This document shows positions 10,623-21,148 of a stretch of 64,000 nt of DNA, one piece after another. The first letter of the stretch is position 1. The number at the start of each line of letters is the position of its first letter. The stretch spans positions 3,923-67,922 of the forward strand of contig JAOUKV010000014.1 of NCBI GenBank assembly GCA_029882355.1, read 5' to 3'. The notes beneath the pieces are model-generated. The model ran no database searches. It worked only from the letters and a program-made list of their open reading frames with translations, and had not been told where the DNA came from. The stretch comes from Gammaproteobacteria bacterium (GTDB taxonomy: Bacteria > Pseudomonadota > Gammaproteobacteria > SZUA-229). The translations under genes were made by a program, and so were the position numbers.

Positions 10623-11261
10623 TTACTCAGGATAAGTAATACCGATGCCGCCTAAGCCACAATAACCATTAGGATTTTTTGCCAGGTATTGCTGGTGATA
10701 ATCTTCGGCATAATAAAATTCGGTAGCGCTCAATATTTCAGTGGTAATTTTGGGCTGCTTAGCGAATAACAAAGCCTGTTGATAAAAATCGCGACTGGCT
10801 TCAGCCTGCTTTTGTTGTTCGTCGGAATAAGTGTAAATGCCTGAACGATATTGCGTACCGCAGTCATTTCCCTGCTGCATTCCCTGTGTTGGATTATGTG
10901 ATTGCCAGAATACTTTTAAAAGCGTTTGATAGCTGATGACTGCCGGGTCAAAAACAATAAACACAACTTCATTATGCGCGGTCATACCAGAGCACACTTC
11001 CTGATAAGTCGGGTTGGGCGTGTAACCGGCGGCATAACCTACGGCTGTAGTATAAACTCCATCAAGTTGCCAGAAAACTTTTTCAGCCCCCCAGAAACAA
11101 CCTAGGCCAAACTGGGCAAATTGCAAATGATCAGGGAAAGGCGGCTGTAAAGGCATGTTATTAACAGCATGCTGAGCTGGCACCAGCATTTTGTGCTCGC
11201 GTCCGACTAGTGCATCCTCCCTGCTGGGTAAGCTGACGTTACTGTGCAGAAGAATAGACAT
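10623..11261 (-). CDS. msrA: Peptide-methionine (S)-S-oxide reductase
   Basis: [27 protein letters not shown]; start reassigned to ATG 11261, just after the upstream gene's stop. Confidence 0.95.
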
Positions 11262-11265
11262 GGCT

Positions 11266-12600
11266 TTATTTCTCAATGCTATTGTTAGTAATGAGTTCGC
11301 GCAGAGACATATGATGTGTCGTCTGTTTGATTGACTCATCAATATGATCACACAATTCATCAATAATATTTTCTGAATTGATGGTGCCAATATTAGAATA
11401 GCTGGATTCATTCTGTCGTCTTATCGATTCGATGATTCGGACAATAGAAATGTTTTCCAGTGATTGGCTAGGGAGATACGACGTATCCCGTTCCTGATGA
11501 CGATAAATTAATTTATCAAATTCCAGTGCATGCAATATTTCAGCAAGCACATCATTAGAAATGTTTAAAGTGTCTGAAAGCTCACTTGATGTCCAGGCCG
11601 TAGTGTTGTCATGAAAGCTTTTTGCAATATGATACATAACCAGTAGTGCAATTTTTTCCTTCATACGACTGCTTAGGTGTGAAAGATTTTGTCCTGCCGG
11701 GATTTTGTCAGGATGCTGGTGGTAATAGGATATGGAAGCGCCTATTAATAAAATTAGCCAGCTTAAATAAAGCCAGATCATAAATAGAACCAGAATAGCA
11801 AAGCTTGAATAAACAGCAGTATAGTTGCCAGAACTAACAACAAAGGATGCAAATAACCAGCCTGTGGTTTCCCATAAGATACCCGCAATAAATGCGCCAG
11901 TTAGAGCAGATCGAAATTTAACCCTGGTATTAGGTACCAGTAAATAAACAACAGTGAAAGCTGCAATCACTAAAGCATAGGGCAGAAGGCTACCGGTGCC
12001 CGTAATAATCGTGCCAAGGTGTTCAGTGTGTGAGAGTTTATTGATGATAGTGGAGCTGGTGATTGCGGCGGTAATGGCTATCGCAGAAAATACCAAAATT
12101 GGGCCAATCATGATAACGCTTAGGTAATCACTAATTCGCTGGCCAAAACCACGGTATTCAGTGATATGCCAGGTGTAATTAAAAGCACGTTCTATTTTAT
12201 GTATGAGCGTTATCACGGTATAAAATAAAAGCGCAATCCCCATGATACCTAAAAGTCCGACGTCGATATTATCAACAAAAGTAATAATCTGATTGGTGAT
12301 GCGTGCGCCTTGTTCGCCCAGCGGCAAAAGTAAATGCAAAAGCAGTGGTTCTATCTGGTTGTGCAAACCAAAAACTTTTAAAATAGAAAAACCGACGGCC
12401 ATGGTCGGTATCATGGAAAGCAGGGTAGTGTAAACCAGACTCATAGCGCGCAAAGTTGGCAGGCCATCAGAGAGGTCGTATATAACCGCCTGTAATATAC
12501 GCAGATATATAACAACAGTACGCTTCCATATTGGCAGGTGCTCTAATTTAACCTCCCATAAAACCTGGTGAACTTTATTTTTCAAATAAGCTAAAGGCAT
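11266..12600 (-). CDS. YihY/BrkB family inner-membrane protein with C-terminal winged-helix-like extension
   Basis: [25 protein letters not shown]...FMIWLY.SW...L.GA motifs. Confidence 0.88.
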
Positions 12601-14765: not shown

Positions 14766-15248
14766 ATGCAAATCGAAAACAATAAAGTTGCGATTCTTCA
14801 CTACACGCTGAAAGACAATGAAGGCAACGTTCTAGATCAGTCTGATGATGGTAGTTTTATTTATTTGCATGGCGCCATGAATATCATACCTGGTCTTGAA
14901 GATGCTTTAACAGGTAAAAAGGTCGGTGATGATTTCAACGTAAAAGTTTCACCTGAAGAGGCTTATGGCGTGCGTTCAGAAGATCATATGCAGGAAGTAC
15001 CAAAAGAAATGTTCGAGTCTGATGCTGAGATTAATGTTGGTATGCAGTTTCATGCACAAGGCCCAAATGGCGATGATCTGATGGTGACAATCGCAGAAAT
15101 TAAAGATGACGTAATTGTTGTTGATGGCAATCACCCACTGGCGGGTGTGGAACTAAATTTCGATGTGAAAGTGGTTGAAGTCAGAGATGCGACTGACGAG
15201 GAGCTCGAGCATGGTCATGTTCACAGCGCGGGTGGTTGTGGTCACTAA
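14766..15248 (+). CDS. slyD: FKBP-type peptidyl-prolyl isomerase SlyD
   Basis: YLHG..NIIPGLE.AL, DGNHPLAG..LNFDV, His/Cys tail HGHVHSAGGCGH. Confidence 0.95.
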   Translation: MQIENNKVAILHYTLKDNEGNVLDQSDDGSFIYLHGAMNIIPGLEDALTGKKVGDDFNVKVSPEEAYGVRSEDHMQEVPKEMFESDAEINVGMQFHAQGPNGDDLMVTIAEIKDDVIVVDGNHPLAGVELNFDVKVVEVRDATDEELEHGHVHSAGGCGH

Positions 15249-15268
15249 TCCGTTCTCTGGGAGTATTC

Positions 15269-15610
15269 ATGTTAGATGATATTGAGCTAGATGCTCTGTA
15301 TTATGTTGATGACTCGGGCATCCATGGCAAAGGCCTGTATGCTCGGGTCGCAATAAAAAAAGGCGAATACATGGGTACATACGATGGCCCGGAGGGCGTC
15401 GAACATGGCAGCCATGTTTTATGGGTTGAAGAGGAAGATGGCGAATGGATAGGCCGCAATGGTCAGAATATTTTGCGTTATCTCAATCATCATAAAAAAC
15501 CTCACGCCGAGTTTGATGGTTTTGATTTATACGCGCTCAAAAATATCAGGGAAGGAGAAGAGCTCACTATTGATTATGGTGAGGAGCCAGATCCGGAGGA
15601 TTGCGATTAG
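15269..15610 (+). CDS. SET domain protein (putative protein-lysine methyltransferase)
   Basis: SGIHGKGLYA, RYLNH and GEELTIDYG SET motifs. Confidence 0.88.
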   Translation: MLDDIELDALYYVDDSGIHGKGLYARVAIKKGEYMGTYDGPEGVEHGSHVLWVEEEDGEWIGRNGQNILRYLNHHKKPHAEFDGFDLYALKNIREGEELTIDYGEEPDPEDCD

Positions 15611-15734
15611 ATTTTGACCGATGCATTCTGCCAGGTCATCACATACTCACAAGGTCATACTGAGTCTTGCCAAAGGTAGGCTTTGCATGCAAAGTGGCTG
15701 AACAGTGGGTAAAACTAACAAACAAAAAACAGAA

Positions 15735-17105
15735 ATGAATGATGAGATCCATCTTGAGTTCAAGGTGGGGCCGTTACATTTTTGTGCGTCAGTACTTGAG
15801 GTCGAGGCCATTATCTCACCACCCAGGATGATTCATGTACCACTGAGTGAGCATGTAGTGGTCGGTTGTTTTGATCATCAGGGAAGAACAGTTACGGTGC
15901 TCAGTATGCACAATAAGTTTGGTTTACCATTTACGCTCAAAGAAAAAGAAACGCATATTATTCTGGCCACTGTGGACAAAGAGCTCAAGGGTTTCTGGGT
16001 GGATCAGGCTATCGATATTATTCAGCTTAATACTTTTGATAATCATGAAGAGTACTATACGAATAAGCGAAAGGCATATTCAAATTTTCTGACTCGTGGT
16101 GAAGAAATAATTCTGCAAACAAGTTTTCAGCGACTGCATAGATGTGACAGTTCAAACCTGAGTTGGCTGGCAAGTGCTGATGGAAATAAGAGTATATCCG
16201 TTGTTAAAGATGAAGATACTGACACAGTCGATGTTATACCCACGCCTGAACATGAAAAAAATACAACGCTAGTAACAGGCGGCACACAAACATCAGAACC
16301 AACCAATGTTGACTATTATGTCAGCGAAGATCGACGTACAGCTAATGGCCAGAATAGTCAGTGCAAAGCCAGTACAAACAGAGCGAAATTATTCGATAAC
16401 ACAAAAAAGAATAGTGCAGTCTTAAGTAGTGGTCATCACGCCAGTGTCATAACACATGACCATAACGAATCTGGAGCATTGCATGCCCGCACCTACAGCA
16501 GCATAACTTCAAGCGAAAGCAAAGTGGTCAATAAGAATGTCGAGGTCTACATTCTGGTCGCAGCCTTATTGTTGCTGGTTGTACTTGGTTTGGGTAGCGT
16601 ATATCTGATCGATATGGGTACTGGTTCAGCAAAAAAATATTCCAGTAAAGCCGGAAATTCACAAGATTTATATACAGCTGTAAAGCCGATTACAGTGGTA
16701 GAGAATAAAGAAATCACAAAAAAGATGATGGAAACAGAGTTTGTAGAAATAGCGCCATCAGAAAATCAGTCATTGAATGCAGTCGCACAGAAGGATGAGA
16801 CAATGCCTGAACAATCGGCAACTGCACGTGTTTTTGAATTACATGTTGATGAAAAATCTGATTCAAACCTGTATGCAATTACTGGCTTTGAACCCGTGTT
16901 GCATCAGCAAGAGAGTGAGCAAGCACCAAGTACACAGACGTTTACCCATGTCGTAGTGAAGGGGGATACCTTGTGGCATATCACGCGACGTTATTTAGAT
17001 AATCCGCATCGATATCCTGAGCTAGCGGCTGCCAGCCATATTAATAATCCTCACCGTATTTATCCAGGTGATGTAATAAGGATTATTGTTAATCGAGCCA
17101 GGTAG
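15735..17105 (+). CDS. CheW-like domain + single TM + C-terminal LysM fusion protein
   Basis: N-terminal CheW-like pattern (FKVG...VEAII...VP.....VG...GR.V.V......GL...GFWVD); TM VYILVAALLLLVVLGLGSVYLI; LysM HVVVKGDTLWHI...INNPHRIYPGD. Confidence 0.8.
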   Translation: MNDEIHLEFKVGPLHFCASVLEVEAIISPPRMIHVPLSEHVVVGCFDHQGRTVTVLSMHNKFGLPFTLKEKETHIILATVDKELKGFWVDQAIDIIQLNTFDNHEEYYTNKRKAYSNFLTRGEEIILQTSFQRLHRCDSSNLSWLASADGNKSISVVKDEDTDTVDVIPTPEHEKNTTLVTGGTQTSEPTNVDYYVSEDRRTANGQNSQCKASTNRAKLFDNTKKNSAVLSSGHHASVITHDHNESGALHARTYSSITSSESKVVNKNVEVYILVAALLLLVVLGLGSVYLIDMGTGSAKKYSSKAGNSQDLYTAVKPITVVENKEITKKMMETEFVEIAPSENQSLNAVAQKDETMPEQSATARVFELHVDEKSDSNLYAITGFEPVLHQQESEQAPSTQTFTHVVVKGDTLWHITRRYLDNPHRYPELAAASHINNPHRIYPGDVIRIIVNRAR

Positions 17106-18581: not shown

Positions 18582-19133
18582 CTAGAATTCTTCGACGGTA
18601 TAACGTTGAATTTTAATACTGTCGCTCCAGTAATTTTCAGGCAGGCCAGATTTCATTTTCAGGTGATTGAGAAAGTCTCGTGGTTTGGCTAGCGATTGCC
18701 ATACCGAAGGTAAAAAAGTTCCGCGTCGGTTGCCCTCTTTCATAATCAGGCCATCAATGTTTGGCCGGAGTTGAGAGACTAAATCCTGCTCAGAATTAAA
18801 AGACATTTTTTCAGGTGTGCCAAGGATGGAAATATGAATATCCAGTTGTTCGAGTTCATCCTCTCTTAGCGGTGGAAAGCGCGGATCAGAAAAAGCCGCG
18901 GCGAAAGCGTTGTGGGCAATATCTTCAGCCAGCGGGCGAACTGGTTCGAGCATGCCTATGCAGCCGCGAAGCTCGCCATTTTTTTGCAGTGTCACGAATG
19001 TAGCGCGTTTTGTATTTAGCGCAGCATCCATTGTTGACAGGTCAACACTTAAAGCATGCCCGCCGGTCAAACCCGATTTGATGGATTCGATAGCGATATC
19101 GCGAAGCTGTTTTCGTTGTTCTTCGTTATGCAT
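18582..19133 (-). CDS. amrA: AmmeMemoRadiSam system protein A (AMMECR1 domain)
   Basis: ATFVTL...G.LRGCIG, DPRF, TFLPSVW. Confidence 0.93.
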   Translation of the reverse strand: MHNEEQRKQLRDIAIESIKSGLTGGHALSVDLSTMDAALNTKRATFVTLQKNGELRGCIGMLEPVRPLAEDIAHNAFAAAFSDPRFPPLREDELEQLDIHISILGTPEKMSFNSEQDLVSQLRPNIDGLIMKEGNRRGTFLPSVWQSLAKPRDFLNHLKMKSGLPENYWSDSIKIQRYTVEEF

Positions 19134-19139
19134 AAGTGT

Positions 19140-19931
19140 TCACGGTTGCTCAAATGCCCACGCACCATATCCGACCACTTTATTTTTGTCACCGGCTGTG
19201 TCACCGGAGTTGCGTAAATCGAGCGTGCTTACTTTTAGATTGTGTTTGCGTGCGGACAGTAATAAGCCGAGAACCGGGTTACGACCACAGGCCTGTCCAT
19301 AATGTATTTGATGGCCATCGAGGTTTTCAATAGCAGAGCAGGTAGCGGCATCCATGGTTCGTGCAGTATTGTAGTCGTGGTAGTGGCTTAAATCGGAAGA
19401 GATAACAATTAATGTTTCATCGCCACCCCAGACAGTCTCCAACACCTCGTGCACATCGACATCACTGGCGTCTCCAACCACCAGTGGCAGTAAGGTAAAT
19501 TCATCCAGTACTTGCTGCAAGAAGGGTAACTGAACCTCCAGGCTGTGTTCCTGTGCGTGAGTGAGATCAAACTCATGTACCTGTGGTAGTTGTAGCAATT
19601 GTTTGCTGAGTTCGCGGTCAATGGGGATTGAACCTAGTGGAGTTTGAAAATAATCTGCACTGCTGGTAGCCAGCCCGGATAAGGCCACGCGGTGACAGGG
19701 GCCCAATAAAACAACGCGATGAATTTTATCTCTGGCGGGAATGAGTTGTGCGAAGGCGCTGGCGGCAATCGGACCGGAATAAATATAACCGGCGTGCGGC
19801 ACGATGATAGCCTTGGGTGATGGCGCAGTGATACTCACTTCGGCGAGCATGGATTTAACTTCCGCCTGAAGTTGTGAGGGGTTACCTGTATAAAACATAT
19901 CAGCGACTGCTGCTGGTCGGGTGCCGGACAT
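19140..19931 (-). CDS. amrB: AmmeMemoRadiSam system protein B (MEMO1 family)
   Basis: RPAAVA..FY, PHAGYIYSG, EHSLEVQLPFLQ, SSDLSHY, SGDTAG...VVGY; start reassigned to 19931. Confidence 0.93.
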   Translation of the reverse strand: MSGTRPAAVADMFYTGNPSQLQAEVKSMLAEVSITAPSPKAIIVPHAGYIYSGPIAASAFAQLIPARDKIHRVVLLGPCHRVALSGLATSSADYFQTPLGSIPIDRELSKQLLQLPQVHEFDLTHAQEHSLEVQLPFLQQVLDEFTLLPLVVGDASDVDVHEVLETVWGGDETLIVISSDLSHYHDYNTARTMDAATCSAIENLDGHQIHYGQACGRNPVLGLLLSARKHNLKVSTLDLRNSGDTAGDKNKVVGYGAWAFEQP

Positions 19932-20029
19932 AATACGCTCCTCTGATCTTATTATTATGCGACCAATGGGCTTTAAAAGTATAGGTTTTATCCTTATATT
20001 GGTCATACAGATATGGTGAAAGGGACTCG

Positions 20030-21148
20030 GTGATGGCGGCAATTAAAGAGAAAATTTTGATGACGGATAAGGGTGTAGTACCGACCAGATACTGGCACAA
20101 GCTGGATGATGGTCGTGTACAGTGTGATTTATGCCCACGTGAATGCAAGCTGCACGAGGGGCAGCGGGGCTTGTGTTTTGTTCGTGCTAGCGTTGATGAT
20201 CAAGTTGTACTGACCACCTACGGTCGTTCCAGTGGTTATTGCATTGATCCCATCGAGAAAAAACCGCTTAATCACTTTTTACCGGGAACGCCGGTATTGT
20301 CGTTTGGTACGGCAGGCTGCAATCTGGCCTGCAAGTTTTGCCAAAACTGGGATATCAGTAAGTCGCGCGAACTGGATACGCTGATGGATCACGCTGAACC
20401 TGAAACCATTGCCAGGGCAGCTGAAGAACTGGGTTGTCGCAGTGTGGCTTTTACCTATAATGACCCGGTCATTTTTCATGAGTATGCGATTGACGTCGCC
20501 AAAGCCTGTAAAAAACGGGGTATTAAGACGGTGGCGGTGACGGCGGGTTATATCTGTGATGAGCCGCGCGTGGAGTTTTTCGAGCACATGGATGCTGCTA
20601 ATATCGATTTGAAGGGTTTTACCGAAGATTTTTACTGGAAGATGACCGGCTCGCATCTGCAGCCGGTACTGGAAACGCTGGAATATATTCATCATGAAAC
20701 CGATGTCTGGATGGAGCTGACCACGCTTTTAATCCCCGGTTACAACGATAGTGAAAAAGAGATTAATGAAATGACTCAGTGGGTGGCTGAGAAGCTGGGG
20801 CCGGATGTGCCTATGCACTTCACTGCATTTCATCCCGATTACAAGATGATGGATGTGCCGCCGACGCCACTGGCGACATTGCGGAGGGCGCGTGAGATCG
20901 CGCTGAAAAATGGCATTCACTACGCCTATACTGGTAATGTGCATGATGTCGGGGGTGATAGCACCTACTGTCATTCCTGCGGGACGTGTTTGATTGAGCG
21001 GGACTGGTATGTTCTTGGAGAATGGAATTTGGATGATAAAGGTGGCTGCAAGAAATGCGGTAACCAGTGCGCCGGAGTTTTTGAATCAGGTCACGGTGAC
21101 TGGGGTGCAAAACGCCAGCCAGTGCATTTGGCCGATTATGAGAAGTAA
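20030..21148 (+). CDS. amrS: AmmeMemoRadiSam system radical SAM enzyme
   Basis: DPIEKKPL.HF, CNLACKFCQNW (CX3CX2C), divergent from amrB/amrA. Confidence 0.95.
   Translation: MMAAIKEKILMTDKGVVPTRYWHKLDDGRVQCDLCPRECKLHEGQRGLCFVRASVDDQVVLTTYGRSSGYCIDPIEKKPLNHFLPGTPVLSFGTAGCNLACKFCQNWDISKSRELDTLMDHAEPETIARAAEELGCRSVAFTYNDPVIFHEYAIDVAKACKKRGIKTVAVTAGYICDEPRVEFFEHMDAANIDLKGFTEDFYWKMTGSHLQPVLETLEYIHHETDVWMELTTLLIPGYNDSEKEINEMTQWVAEKLGPDVPMHFTAFHPDYKMMDVPPTPLATLRRAREIALKNGIHYAYTGNVHDVGGDSTYCHSCGTCLIERDWYVLGEWNLDDKGGCKKCGNQCAGVFESGHGDWGAKRQPVHLADYEK

Follow-up and report, generated by a model that had tools for sequence, protein, structure and literature searches.

A CheW-type domain joined through a single membrane span to a LysM domain: a candidate tether between chemosensory arrays and peptidoglycan in a gammaproteobacterium

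Introduction

How bacteria place, hold, and pass on their chemosensory arrays is understood for only a few systems, namely, stochastic nucleation in Escherichia coli, ParC/ParP/HubP in Vibrio, and TipN-type or PpfA-type proteins elsewhere. We know of no direct link between an array baseplate and the cell wall. Here we analyze a gene whose product joins, in one polypeptide, a CheW-like domain, a single transmembrane (TM) helix, and a C-terminal LysM domain (the CheW-LysM protein). The gene lies in a 64,000-nucleotide stretch of DNA, called the window throughout, from a gammaproteobacterium (GTDB lineage SZUA-229; assembly GCA_029882355.1, contig JAOUKV010000014.1, positions 3,923 to 67,922). 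A first-pass annotation, made from the sequence alone, had put this protein forward as a candidate tether from chemosensory arrays to peptidoglycan.

The nearest functional analog is the ParP/ParC/HubP system of Vibrio, which, in the portions of two papers that bear on it, pairs a CheW/SH3-like binder of methyl-accepting chemotaxis protein (MCP) tips with positioning through a periplasmic LysM domain (PMC5706961, PMC8789113). According to the same portions, ParP enters arrays by binding MCP tips with its SH3-like domain, and the LysM domain of HubP is both necessary and sufficient for polar targeting (PMC5706961, PMC8789113); the comparison with ParP and HubP made in the first-pass annotation is apt. 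ParP itself is described there as a soluble protein whose C-terminal AIF domain is nearer to the P5 domain of CheA than to CheW, whose N-terminal region binds ParC, and whose gene lies beside parC (PMC5706961). In contrast, the CheW-LysM protein carries an N-terminal, CheW-type domain and is membrane anchored, and its gene is not beside the ParA-like genes of its own genome (clusters C62 and C10 in Table 1). Likewise, FimV and HubP are characterized in an abstract (PMC12918733) as bitopic inner-membrane proteins with a periplasmic LysM domain and a long, low-complexity cytoplasmic part, features to which the predicted layout of the CheW-LysM protein is similar. However, LysM is N-terminal in FimV/HubP, so that the order is inverted here, and no match to the FimV core or TPR was obtained for the CheW-LysM protein in NCBIfam or Pfam.

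A third comparison is with TsaP, described in a passage of PMC8811193 as anchoring the type IV pilus secretin to peptidoglycan. The LysM domains found to be most similar to the one in the window belong to proteins in a putative TsaP position, although TsaP is exported, has its LysM domain at the N terminus, and lacks a CheW domain. Ordinary CheW shares with the protein studied here the two-subdomain fold and the conserved hydrophobic groove residues, and the N-terminal domain is nearer to the CheW proteins of its own genome than to CheA P5. However, CheW is a soluble protein of ~160 to 180 amino acids (aa) encoded in che clusters, whereas this one has 456 aa, a TM helix, and a LysM domain and is encoded by an orphan gene. 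CheV and other CheW fusions indicate that the domain tolerates fusion to another module (preprint 10.1101/2022.05.07.491035, in the part concerned with such fusions). The known fusions join CheW to chemotaxis modules (REC, CheR, CheC, and others). The word LysM is absent from two preprints on CheW-domain architectures, which leave out rare architectures and whose supplements might list the present one. The first-pass annotation knew of no characterized protein of this architecture, and full-text literature searches returned no paper on a CheW-LysM fusion, including those that combined PF01584 with PF01476; the hits examined name CheW and LysM apart from each other.

Results

Translation from the ATG at 15735 yields a 456-aa protein with no internal stop, and an identical protein is present in the protein collection (P0002). 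In Pfam searches, CheW (PF01584) matched residues 7 to 117 with 56.5 bits (gathering cut-off, 23.5; E = 3.1e-15), and LysM (PF01476) matched residues 405 to 450 with 34.7 bits (cut-off, 20.9; E = 1.8e-8). NCBIfam offered no name at the level of a family. Together with the hydropathy profile and an AlphaFold2 (AF2) model built on an alignment of 50 homologs, these matches bear out the architecture proposed in the first pass: a CheW domain, a polar linker, one TM helix, an acidic linker, and LysM, with no signal peptide. An alternative GTG start at 15705 (open reading frame [ORF] 15705..17105) would lengthen the protein to 466 aa, and the 10 additional residues (MGKTNKQKTE) resemble the K/N/Q-rich N termini of homologs. 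No clear Shine-Dalgarno sequence was seen at either candidate start, and the true start is uncertain. A scan for promoters and terminators between 14500 and 18600 returned 7 promoter-like and 3 terminator-like signals, against 9.8 and 3.0 in shuffled sequence, with nothing usable before the gene.

The N-terminal domain is, in the AF2 model, a complete CheW fold with two SH3-like subdomains. The predicted local distance difference test (pLDDT) score ranged from 77 to 96 across residues 1 to 140 (10-residue blocks). In a Foldseek search of the PDB, the best matches were the CheW chains of 2qdl, 2ch4 (W and Y), 6s1k, and 8c5v, which include crystal and cryo-electron microscopy structures; the target-normalized TM-scores to these chains were 0.73 to 0.80 over 136 to 142 columns (E = 7.5e-11 to 1.7e-9), and the P5 domains of CheA ranked after CheW. 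A profile of 25 N-terminal domains aligned with CheW of 2qdl over positions 7 to 140 (E = 1.8e-18), indicating a complete fold even though the Pfam match is limited to profile positions 3 to 115. The fold of this domain had been named in the first pass as a point on which the tether proposal could fall, and both AF2 and Foldseek return it whole. When the family profile was compared with the proteins of the same genome, the C10-encoded CheW scored 61.6 bits, PilI 43.1, the C62-encoded CheW 43.0, and CheA P5 21.9. The higher scores for CheW than for P5 place the domain in the CheW lineage.

The surface by which CheW binds receptors also appears to be retained. In Thermotoga maritima CheW, the groove that binds the MCP tip is reported to include L14, V27, I30, and V33 (PMC5706961, in the part describing this interface). 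Through the profile alignment to 2qdl, their equivalents in the window protein are L7, V20, V23, and I26. L7 is conserved at ≥90%, the V23 column holds V or I in 69 of 75 family domains, and the I26 column holds I or V in 74 of 75; the column of V20 (the V27 equivalent) is variable. Judging from these columns, the CheW-LysM family has kept the hydrophobic groove that receives the receptor tip in CheW. A complex prediction for the N-terminal domain with the P5 domain of the C10-encoded CheA scored 0.01 (mark, 0.32) in a run with controls absent and is evidence neither way.

Hydropathy analysis of the 456-aa protein detected one hydrophobic segment, at residues 271 to 289, with a 19-residue maximum of 2.78; it was the sole segment at or above 1.6. 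No hydrophobic segment was found at the N terminus, which indicates that there is no signal peptide. AF2 modeled a helix at residues 267 to 293 with pLDDT of ~90. The segment recurs in all 50 aligned homologs and is the only one in 45 of them. Within the 15 residues on either side of it, Lys plus Arg is more frequent on the N-terminal side in 32 of the 50, equal in 10, and less frequent in 8. Taking together the single TM helix, the lack of a signal peptide, and this charge bias, the parsimonious prediction is an N-in, C-out topology, with the CheW-like domain in the cytoplasm and LysM in the periplasm.

Two linkers flank the TM helix. Residues 149 to 266 are polar (16 Ser, 15 Thr, and 10 Asn of 118), residues 294 to 398 are mildly acidic (17 Asp plus Glu, 10 Lys plus Arg), and pLDDT was below 50 for most of residues 153 to 262 and most of 300 to 395. 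Across the 50-homolog alignment, the linkers are unconserved and the N-terminal and LysM domains are conserved; a short strand within the periplasmic linker (residues 366 to 373; mean pLDDT of 71 in its 10-residue block) forms a motif that aligns across subfamilies. Linker length was measured in 79 distinct full-length members. Between the N-terminal domain and the TM helix, the minimum was 122, the median 181, and the maximum 423 residues; the corresponding values for the periplasmic linker were 37, 132, and 321. An extended chain covers ~0.36 nm per residue, at which 122 residues span ~44 nm, and fewer than ~75 residues would be too short to reach a baseplate. The relevant portion of a study of Azospirillum brasilense places the CheA/CheW baseplate 27.5 ± 2.6 and 31 ± 2.4 nm from the inner membrane (PMC6759762). 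A minimum length combined with freely varying sequence is what would be expected of a baseplate tether and is consistent with one, without being proof.

The C-terminal domain is modeled by AF2 as the beta-alpha-alpha-beta arrangement of LysM (strands at 400 to 406 and 447 to 454, helices at 413 to 421 and 424 to 433; pLDDT of 72 to 87), and 13 columns within residues 400 to 454 are invariant across the 50 homologs. Foldseek gave local LysM matches to 7r1l, 7pvc, and 4uz3 with probabilities of 0.85 to 0.98 but E values of 0.1 to 0.6 in the whole-chain search. We also scanned species genomes with a full-length alignment keyed on LysM, which yielded 600 matched stretches, 425 confirmed relatives, and 80 loci kept. 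At only 7 of these 80 loci was the N-terminal domain encoded in the same ORF. The other 73 held LysM-only ORFs of 337 to 673 aa (337 to 446 aa in 71 of them) with LysM near the N terminus, and an N-terminal hydrophobic segment was present in 59 of the 73. Identity to these LysM-only proteins was 38 to 60% over 46 to 100 residues. In all four loci whose neighbors were scanned, the LysM-only gene lay between def (divergent) and dprA. This is presumably the position of tsaP (PA0020), an assignment made from position and not by comparison with a named TsaP. Within the window's own genome, the best LysM paralog matched at 46% over 48 aa (E = 7.5e-10) and is the lipoprotein-like ORF of 420 aa in Table 1, which shares the def/dprA setting; the FimV locus matched weakly (23 bits, E = 1.8). 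Since the nearest relatives of this LysM domain are exported, a periplasmic, wall-binding LysM is favored over a cytoplasmic one of the Kbp type.

A cytoplasmic, Kbp-like LysM on the same side of the membrane as CheW was considered and rejected given the conserved single TM helix, the lack of a BON domain, and the exported nearest relatives. Kbp/YgaU itself (NF008399) was also set aside: the match scored 38.7 bits against a cut-off of 134 and covered profile positions 78 to 145 only, which correspond to LysM, with no BON domain.

The fusion is not confined to this genome. A word-indexed protein search recovered 186 homologs at E ≤ 1e-3, of which 120 were listed; 107 of these 120 carry both Pfam domains, and the sources among them include one Thiohalophilus sp. 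and one Deltaproteobacteria metagenome-assembled genome (MAG). The same domain order recurs in 79 distinct full-length relatives, which puts the fusion far beyond chance. The ESM Atlas holds three clusters of this architecture, with 69, 57, and 108 members, the last commonest in Nitrospirota. Searched against 1.84 billion cluster representatives, a profile of the N-terminal domain retrieved 706 at E ≤ 1e-30; of the 150 that were listed, most have a single N-terminal match and a length of 450 to 800 aa, with some triple-CheW proteins mixed in. Within the window's order, which consists of a single family, the gene was found in 23 of 97 genomes and 11 of 19 genera (15 of 44 high-quality genomes). 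In an even sample of 400 genomes across the class, 15 passed E ≤ 1e-22, two of them with an ordinary 162-aa CheW, leaving 13 carriers that span 10 families; two genomes in the sample flagged as unpublished (G237 and G391) affect background counts only. Two Desulfobacteraceae MAGs are carriers as well. The CheW-LysM family is real, old or mobile, patchy in distribution, and dispensable.

Some carriers depart from the usual single gene. One genome with 100% completeness (G164) has two paralogs, of 699 and 753 aa (L162:8090-10189 and L163:7915-10176), in unrelated contexts, and one of them adjoins a CHASE2 adenylate/guanylate cyclase gene. In another complete genome (G260; 66% GC), the N-terminal domain and the TM-LysM part occupy two overlapping frames at L161:10032-11469, with the switch inside a Pro/Ala-rich linker; this reflects either a frameshift or an assembly error. 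A 660-aa ORF at L157:7927-9909 (G346) has an end that resembles LysM read out of frame.

The chemosensory repertoire of the window's own genome (2.88 Mb, 98.5% complete) comprises eight CheW-domain matches, six MCP matches, and three chemosensory clusters (Table 1). All three clusters lie on other contigs, and the CheW-LysM gene is the sole orphan CheW-domain gene of this genome. A separate FimV is encoded on contig C47 (988-aa frame, FimV_core), and flagellin, FlhA, and FliG gave no match in the genome. Among the genomes of the order, CheA is present in 23 of 23 carriers, and the gene occurs in 0 of the 12 genomes that lack CheA; in the class sample, 13 of 13 carriers have a match to the CheA dimerization domain. 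FliG was matched in 10 of the 13 carriers versus 193 of 400 genomes in the sample.

Candidate partners were also considered. The C10-type CheA, a class of ~730-aa CheA, ChpA/PilJ, and flagella each fail in some carriers, and none was retained as the one chemosensory class that tracks the gene. The MCP encoded next to the gene in some relatives has no ortholog in the window's genome and is ruled out as an obligate partner. The C62 and C10 clusters each hold a ParA-like ATPase gene but no ParP-like gene, and the C62 cluster ends in a REC-GGDEF output gene.

Discussion

The reading that we tentatively favor, and that in our judgment falls only a little short of probable, is that the CheW-LysM protein is a nonsignaling CheW paralog that becomes part of receptor arrays and fastens them to both membrane and peptidoglycan. 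The CheW-like domain would dock on the MCP hairpin tip via its hydrophobic inter-subdomain groove and take a CheW position in the baseplate, where, lacking the coupling Arg, it would act as a structural rather than a signaling member. The tether, of at least 122 aa, would return along the ~28-nm receptor to the membrane, and the TM helix and LysM would fix its end to membrane and peptidoglycan. Anchoring of this kind may restrain diffusion of the array or may place or stabilize arrays, possibly where LysM prefers the wall. We infer receptor binding, peptidoglycan binding, the anchoring role, and the N-in, C-out topology from the features described above; anchoring is further supported by the conserved groove residues, a linker that is always long enough, and CheA in every carrier checked.

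A number of observations weigh against this proposal. In the N-terminal domain, only 12 of 75 family members have the Arg of the "lRG" motif, with Gln49 in its place in the window protein, whereas ordinary CheW keeps it, as do both CheW proteins (C62 and C10) and PilI of the same genome, each with (L/V)RG. We take this Arg to be the equivalent of E. coli R62, presumably needed for CheW coupling. The canonical Glu column contains Glu in 0 of 75 domains, with Ala, Ser, or Gly instead, and a Glu lies one position earlier in 51 of 75. With the groove kept and both hallmarks lost, the domain looks able to dock on receptors yet unlike a signaling CheW, and the loss could mean that array function has been lost altogether, beyond signaling. 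The geometry is also less comfortable than the extended-chain figure suggests: by our estimate, a relaxed coil of 122 aa would measure ~10 nm, far below 28 nm, so that the shortest linkers would need stretching.

Further points on the same side come from distribution. The gene is missing from 62 of the 85 CheA-positive genomes of the order, which marks it as dispensable. It goes with chemosensory-rich genomes, but no single system tracks it, and the C10-type CheA is absent from many carriers. An ortholog from the window's own genus (G076; Table 1) ends shortly after the TM helix, and no LysM remnant was found in any frame within 1 kb around its 3′ end. Three further clusters of 367 to 385 aa without LysM (P0025 to P0027) occur among the homologs listed. 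The ortholog in G076 indicates that the wall tether is not essential; membrane tethering may be the core function and the wall link an addition. Finally, no che gene was detected by Pfam among the 57 window ORFs scanned, as the first-pass annotation had stated for the adjacent genes, and in most lineages the gene lies away from che genes among envelope and housekeeping genes. At 15 of 26 loci, mlaA (divergent) and, on the same strand as the gene, a PlsC-type acyltransferase gene stand directly upstream; the block also contains genes for Slt (further upstream), thioredoxin, NUDIX, and PilZ proteins. Four loci, from as many other families, place the gene between lptD-surA-pdxA-rsmA (upstream) and apaG (downstream), and at one locus its immediate upstream neighbor encodes a YkuD L,D-transpeptidase.

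A more ambitious form of the tether proposal is doubtful, though worth stating. The protein would then be a strut from baseplate through membrane to peptidoglycan that does alone the work shared by ParP, ParC, and HubP; a preference of LysM for certain wall sites (polar or septal) would decide where arrays form and where they are inherited, and receptor length would fix how short the tether can be. A taut strut would, in addition, transmit wall strain mechanically to the packing of the array.

The conserved envelope-gene neighbors suggest, as an alternative, a nonchemosensory role. Under it, the CheW fold would have been repurposed for envelope biogenesis or maintenance, with some other cytoplasmic partner and with LysM as the anchor to the wall. 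The mlaA/PlsC/Slt, lptD-surA, and YkuD neighborhoods, the lost Arg and Glu hallmarks, and a window free of che genes all fit such a role, but we consider it unlikely. The hydrophobic residues of the receptor groove are still conserved, a 122-aa linker minimum would be hard to explain for a domain acting at the membrane surface, and CheA accompanies all of the carriers of the order and of the class sample. The synteny, moreover, is weak evidence of function, since the blocks are inherited within related lineages and include unrelated housekeeping genes (pdxA, rsmA, and apaG). Chemosensory neighbors occur, too: a convergent MCP gene is directly downstream in four loci and one gene away in another, and a Pil-Chp operon is just upstream in one.

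The geometry of the favored tether raises a further alternative, in which the protein is a sensor input that reports the state of the cell wall, or mechanical load on it, to a Che or Pil-Chp kinase through tension between wall and baseplate. If that geometry holds, the protein spans wall to baseplate, and the shortest linkers would be taut. Both linkers are disordered, however, so only tension or position could be transmitted and not conformation, and the presumed coupling Arg is missing in 63 of 75 members; the first-pass suggestion that wall cues might be passed on, if taken to mean conformational signaling, is unlikely on these grounds. A link to Pil-Chp in particular might be read from PF13675 (PilJ-type), matched in 13 of 13 carriers versus 170 of 401 genomes in the class sample, from the one genome in which pilJ-chpA-chpC and a UDG gene precede the CheW-LysM gene on its own strand, and from PilS-like kinase genes nearby in four loci. 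However, PF13675 is not PilJ specific, as it also matches the E. coli control, and a full-length PilJ ortholog, present in four of the carriers queried, was missing from another that is 100% complete and has two gene copies. The specific connection to Pil-Chp suggested in the first pass does not hold up in that genome. The MCP adjacent to the gene in relatives likewise lacks an ortholog in the window's genome, and on balance we regard a sensor as improbable.

Least probable of all is a decoy or limiter, that is, a tethered, signaling-dead CheW that competes with CheW and P5 for receptor tips and so limits arrays or keeps receptors outside them, which would suit the conserved groove with lost coupling hallmarks, the dispensable and patchy gene, and the competition of SH3-like proteins for the MCP tip described in part of PMC5706961 but would need neither LysM nor a long tether, both of which are kept (107 of the 120 homologs listed; linker minimum of 122).

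The CheW-LysM fusion family, with hundreds of clusters, is real, conserved, and unstudied. A domain of the baseplate type fused to a peptidoglycan-binding domain is a simple candidate mechanism for anchoring arrays and, if the tether proposal is right, a case in nature of CheW being retained as a structural rather than a signaling domain. Because its members are found both where flagella are present and where they are absent, and alongside several chemosensory systems, the family could be relevant to arrays governing type IV pili or cyclic di-GMP output. Should the CheW fold serve an envelope function instead, that would also be new for the CheW domain.

Other features of the window and of related loci

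The gene is preceded in the window by slyD-like and SET-domain genes and followed by a DUF5619 gene, an EF-P-like gene, and an AMMECR1/Memo/radical-SAM trio. The gene directly upstream (15236-15610, +) encodes a 124-aa SET-domain protein (E = 2.8e-10) and shares 13 nt with the end of the slyD-like FKBP gene. The trio, at 18582-21148, has the composition known as AmmeMemoRadiSam, with AMMECR1 and Memo-like genes on the minus strand and a divergent radical-SAM gene. Coordinates of the CheW-LysM gene, its parts, and related loci elsewhere are collected in Table 1.

TABLE 1 Coordinates of the CheW-LysM gene, its predicted parts, and loci related to it
Feature	Location	Strand	Details
CheW-like–linker–TM–linker–LysM gene	15735..17105	+	ATG start, 456 aa, stop codon 17103-17105 (ORF list, translation, Pfam)
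CheW-like domain, predicted cytoplasmic	15744..16184	+	Residues ~4-150; two beta-barrel subdomains plus C-terminal helices
Polar disordered linker, predicted cytoplasmic	16185..16532	+	Residues ~151-266; low pLDDT, S/T/N-rich
Single TM helix	16533..16613	+	Residues 267-293; hydrophobic core 271-289 (AF2, hydropathy)
Mildly acidic linker, predicted periplasmic	16614..16931	+	Residues 294-399; disordered
Conserved short beta-strand motif within periplasmic linker	16830-16853	+	Residues 366-373
C-terminal LysM, predicted periplasmic	16932..17096	+	Residues 400-454 (Pfam, AF2)
Chemosensory cluster C62	C62:48880-60536		CheY, CheA, ParA-like, STAS, CheR, CheD, CheB, MCP, CheW, REC-GGDEF
Chemosensory cluster C10	C10:14090-25134		REC, CheB, MCP, CheW, CheY, 1110-aa CheA, CheB, ParA-like
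Chemosensory cluster C21	C21:5011-14772		PilG, PilH, PilI, PilJ, ChpA, ChpC
LysM paralog, lipoprotein-like, 420 aa	G000 C29:102586-103848	+	Between divergent def-fmt-rsmB and dprA-smg-topA
LysM-less ortholog, 367 aa	L113:6755-7858	-	G076, window's genus: CheW, linker, TM, 37-aa tail

In relatives with the lptD...apaG arrangement, small ORFs of 144 to 176 aa follow the gene (L158:7650-8084, -; L157:7352-7840, -; and L159:11382-11912, +). One of the three has a ComFB domain (E = 8e-22), and the other two gave no Pfam match.

Elsewhere in the window, an ORF at 11266-12600 (-) encodes a membrane protein of the BrkB/YihY family that carries an Rrf2-like domain at its C terminus (E = 3.8e-6); it overlaps the MsrA ORF (10623-11411) by ~146 nt, and its start may be misplaced. 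Between 21317 and 26948, five ORFs of 110 to 232 aa, all lacking a Pfam match at E ≤ 1e-5, come after the gene for a 603-aa AAA_22 ATPase, and the region could be a mobile or defense islet. The segment 43763-50995 encodes secreted-type proteins of 869 aa (Big_5) and 867 aa (Flg_new_2, PKD, and two proprotein-convertase P-domains), whose genes adjoin those for a hybrid histidine kinase and a LuxR-type regulator.

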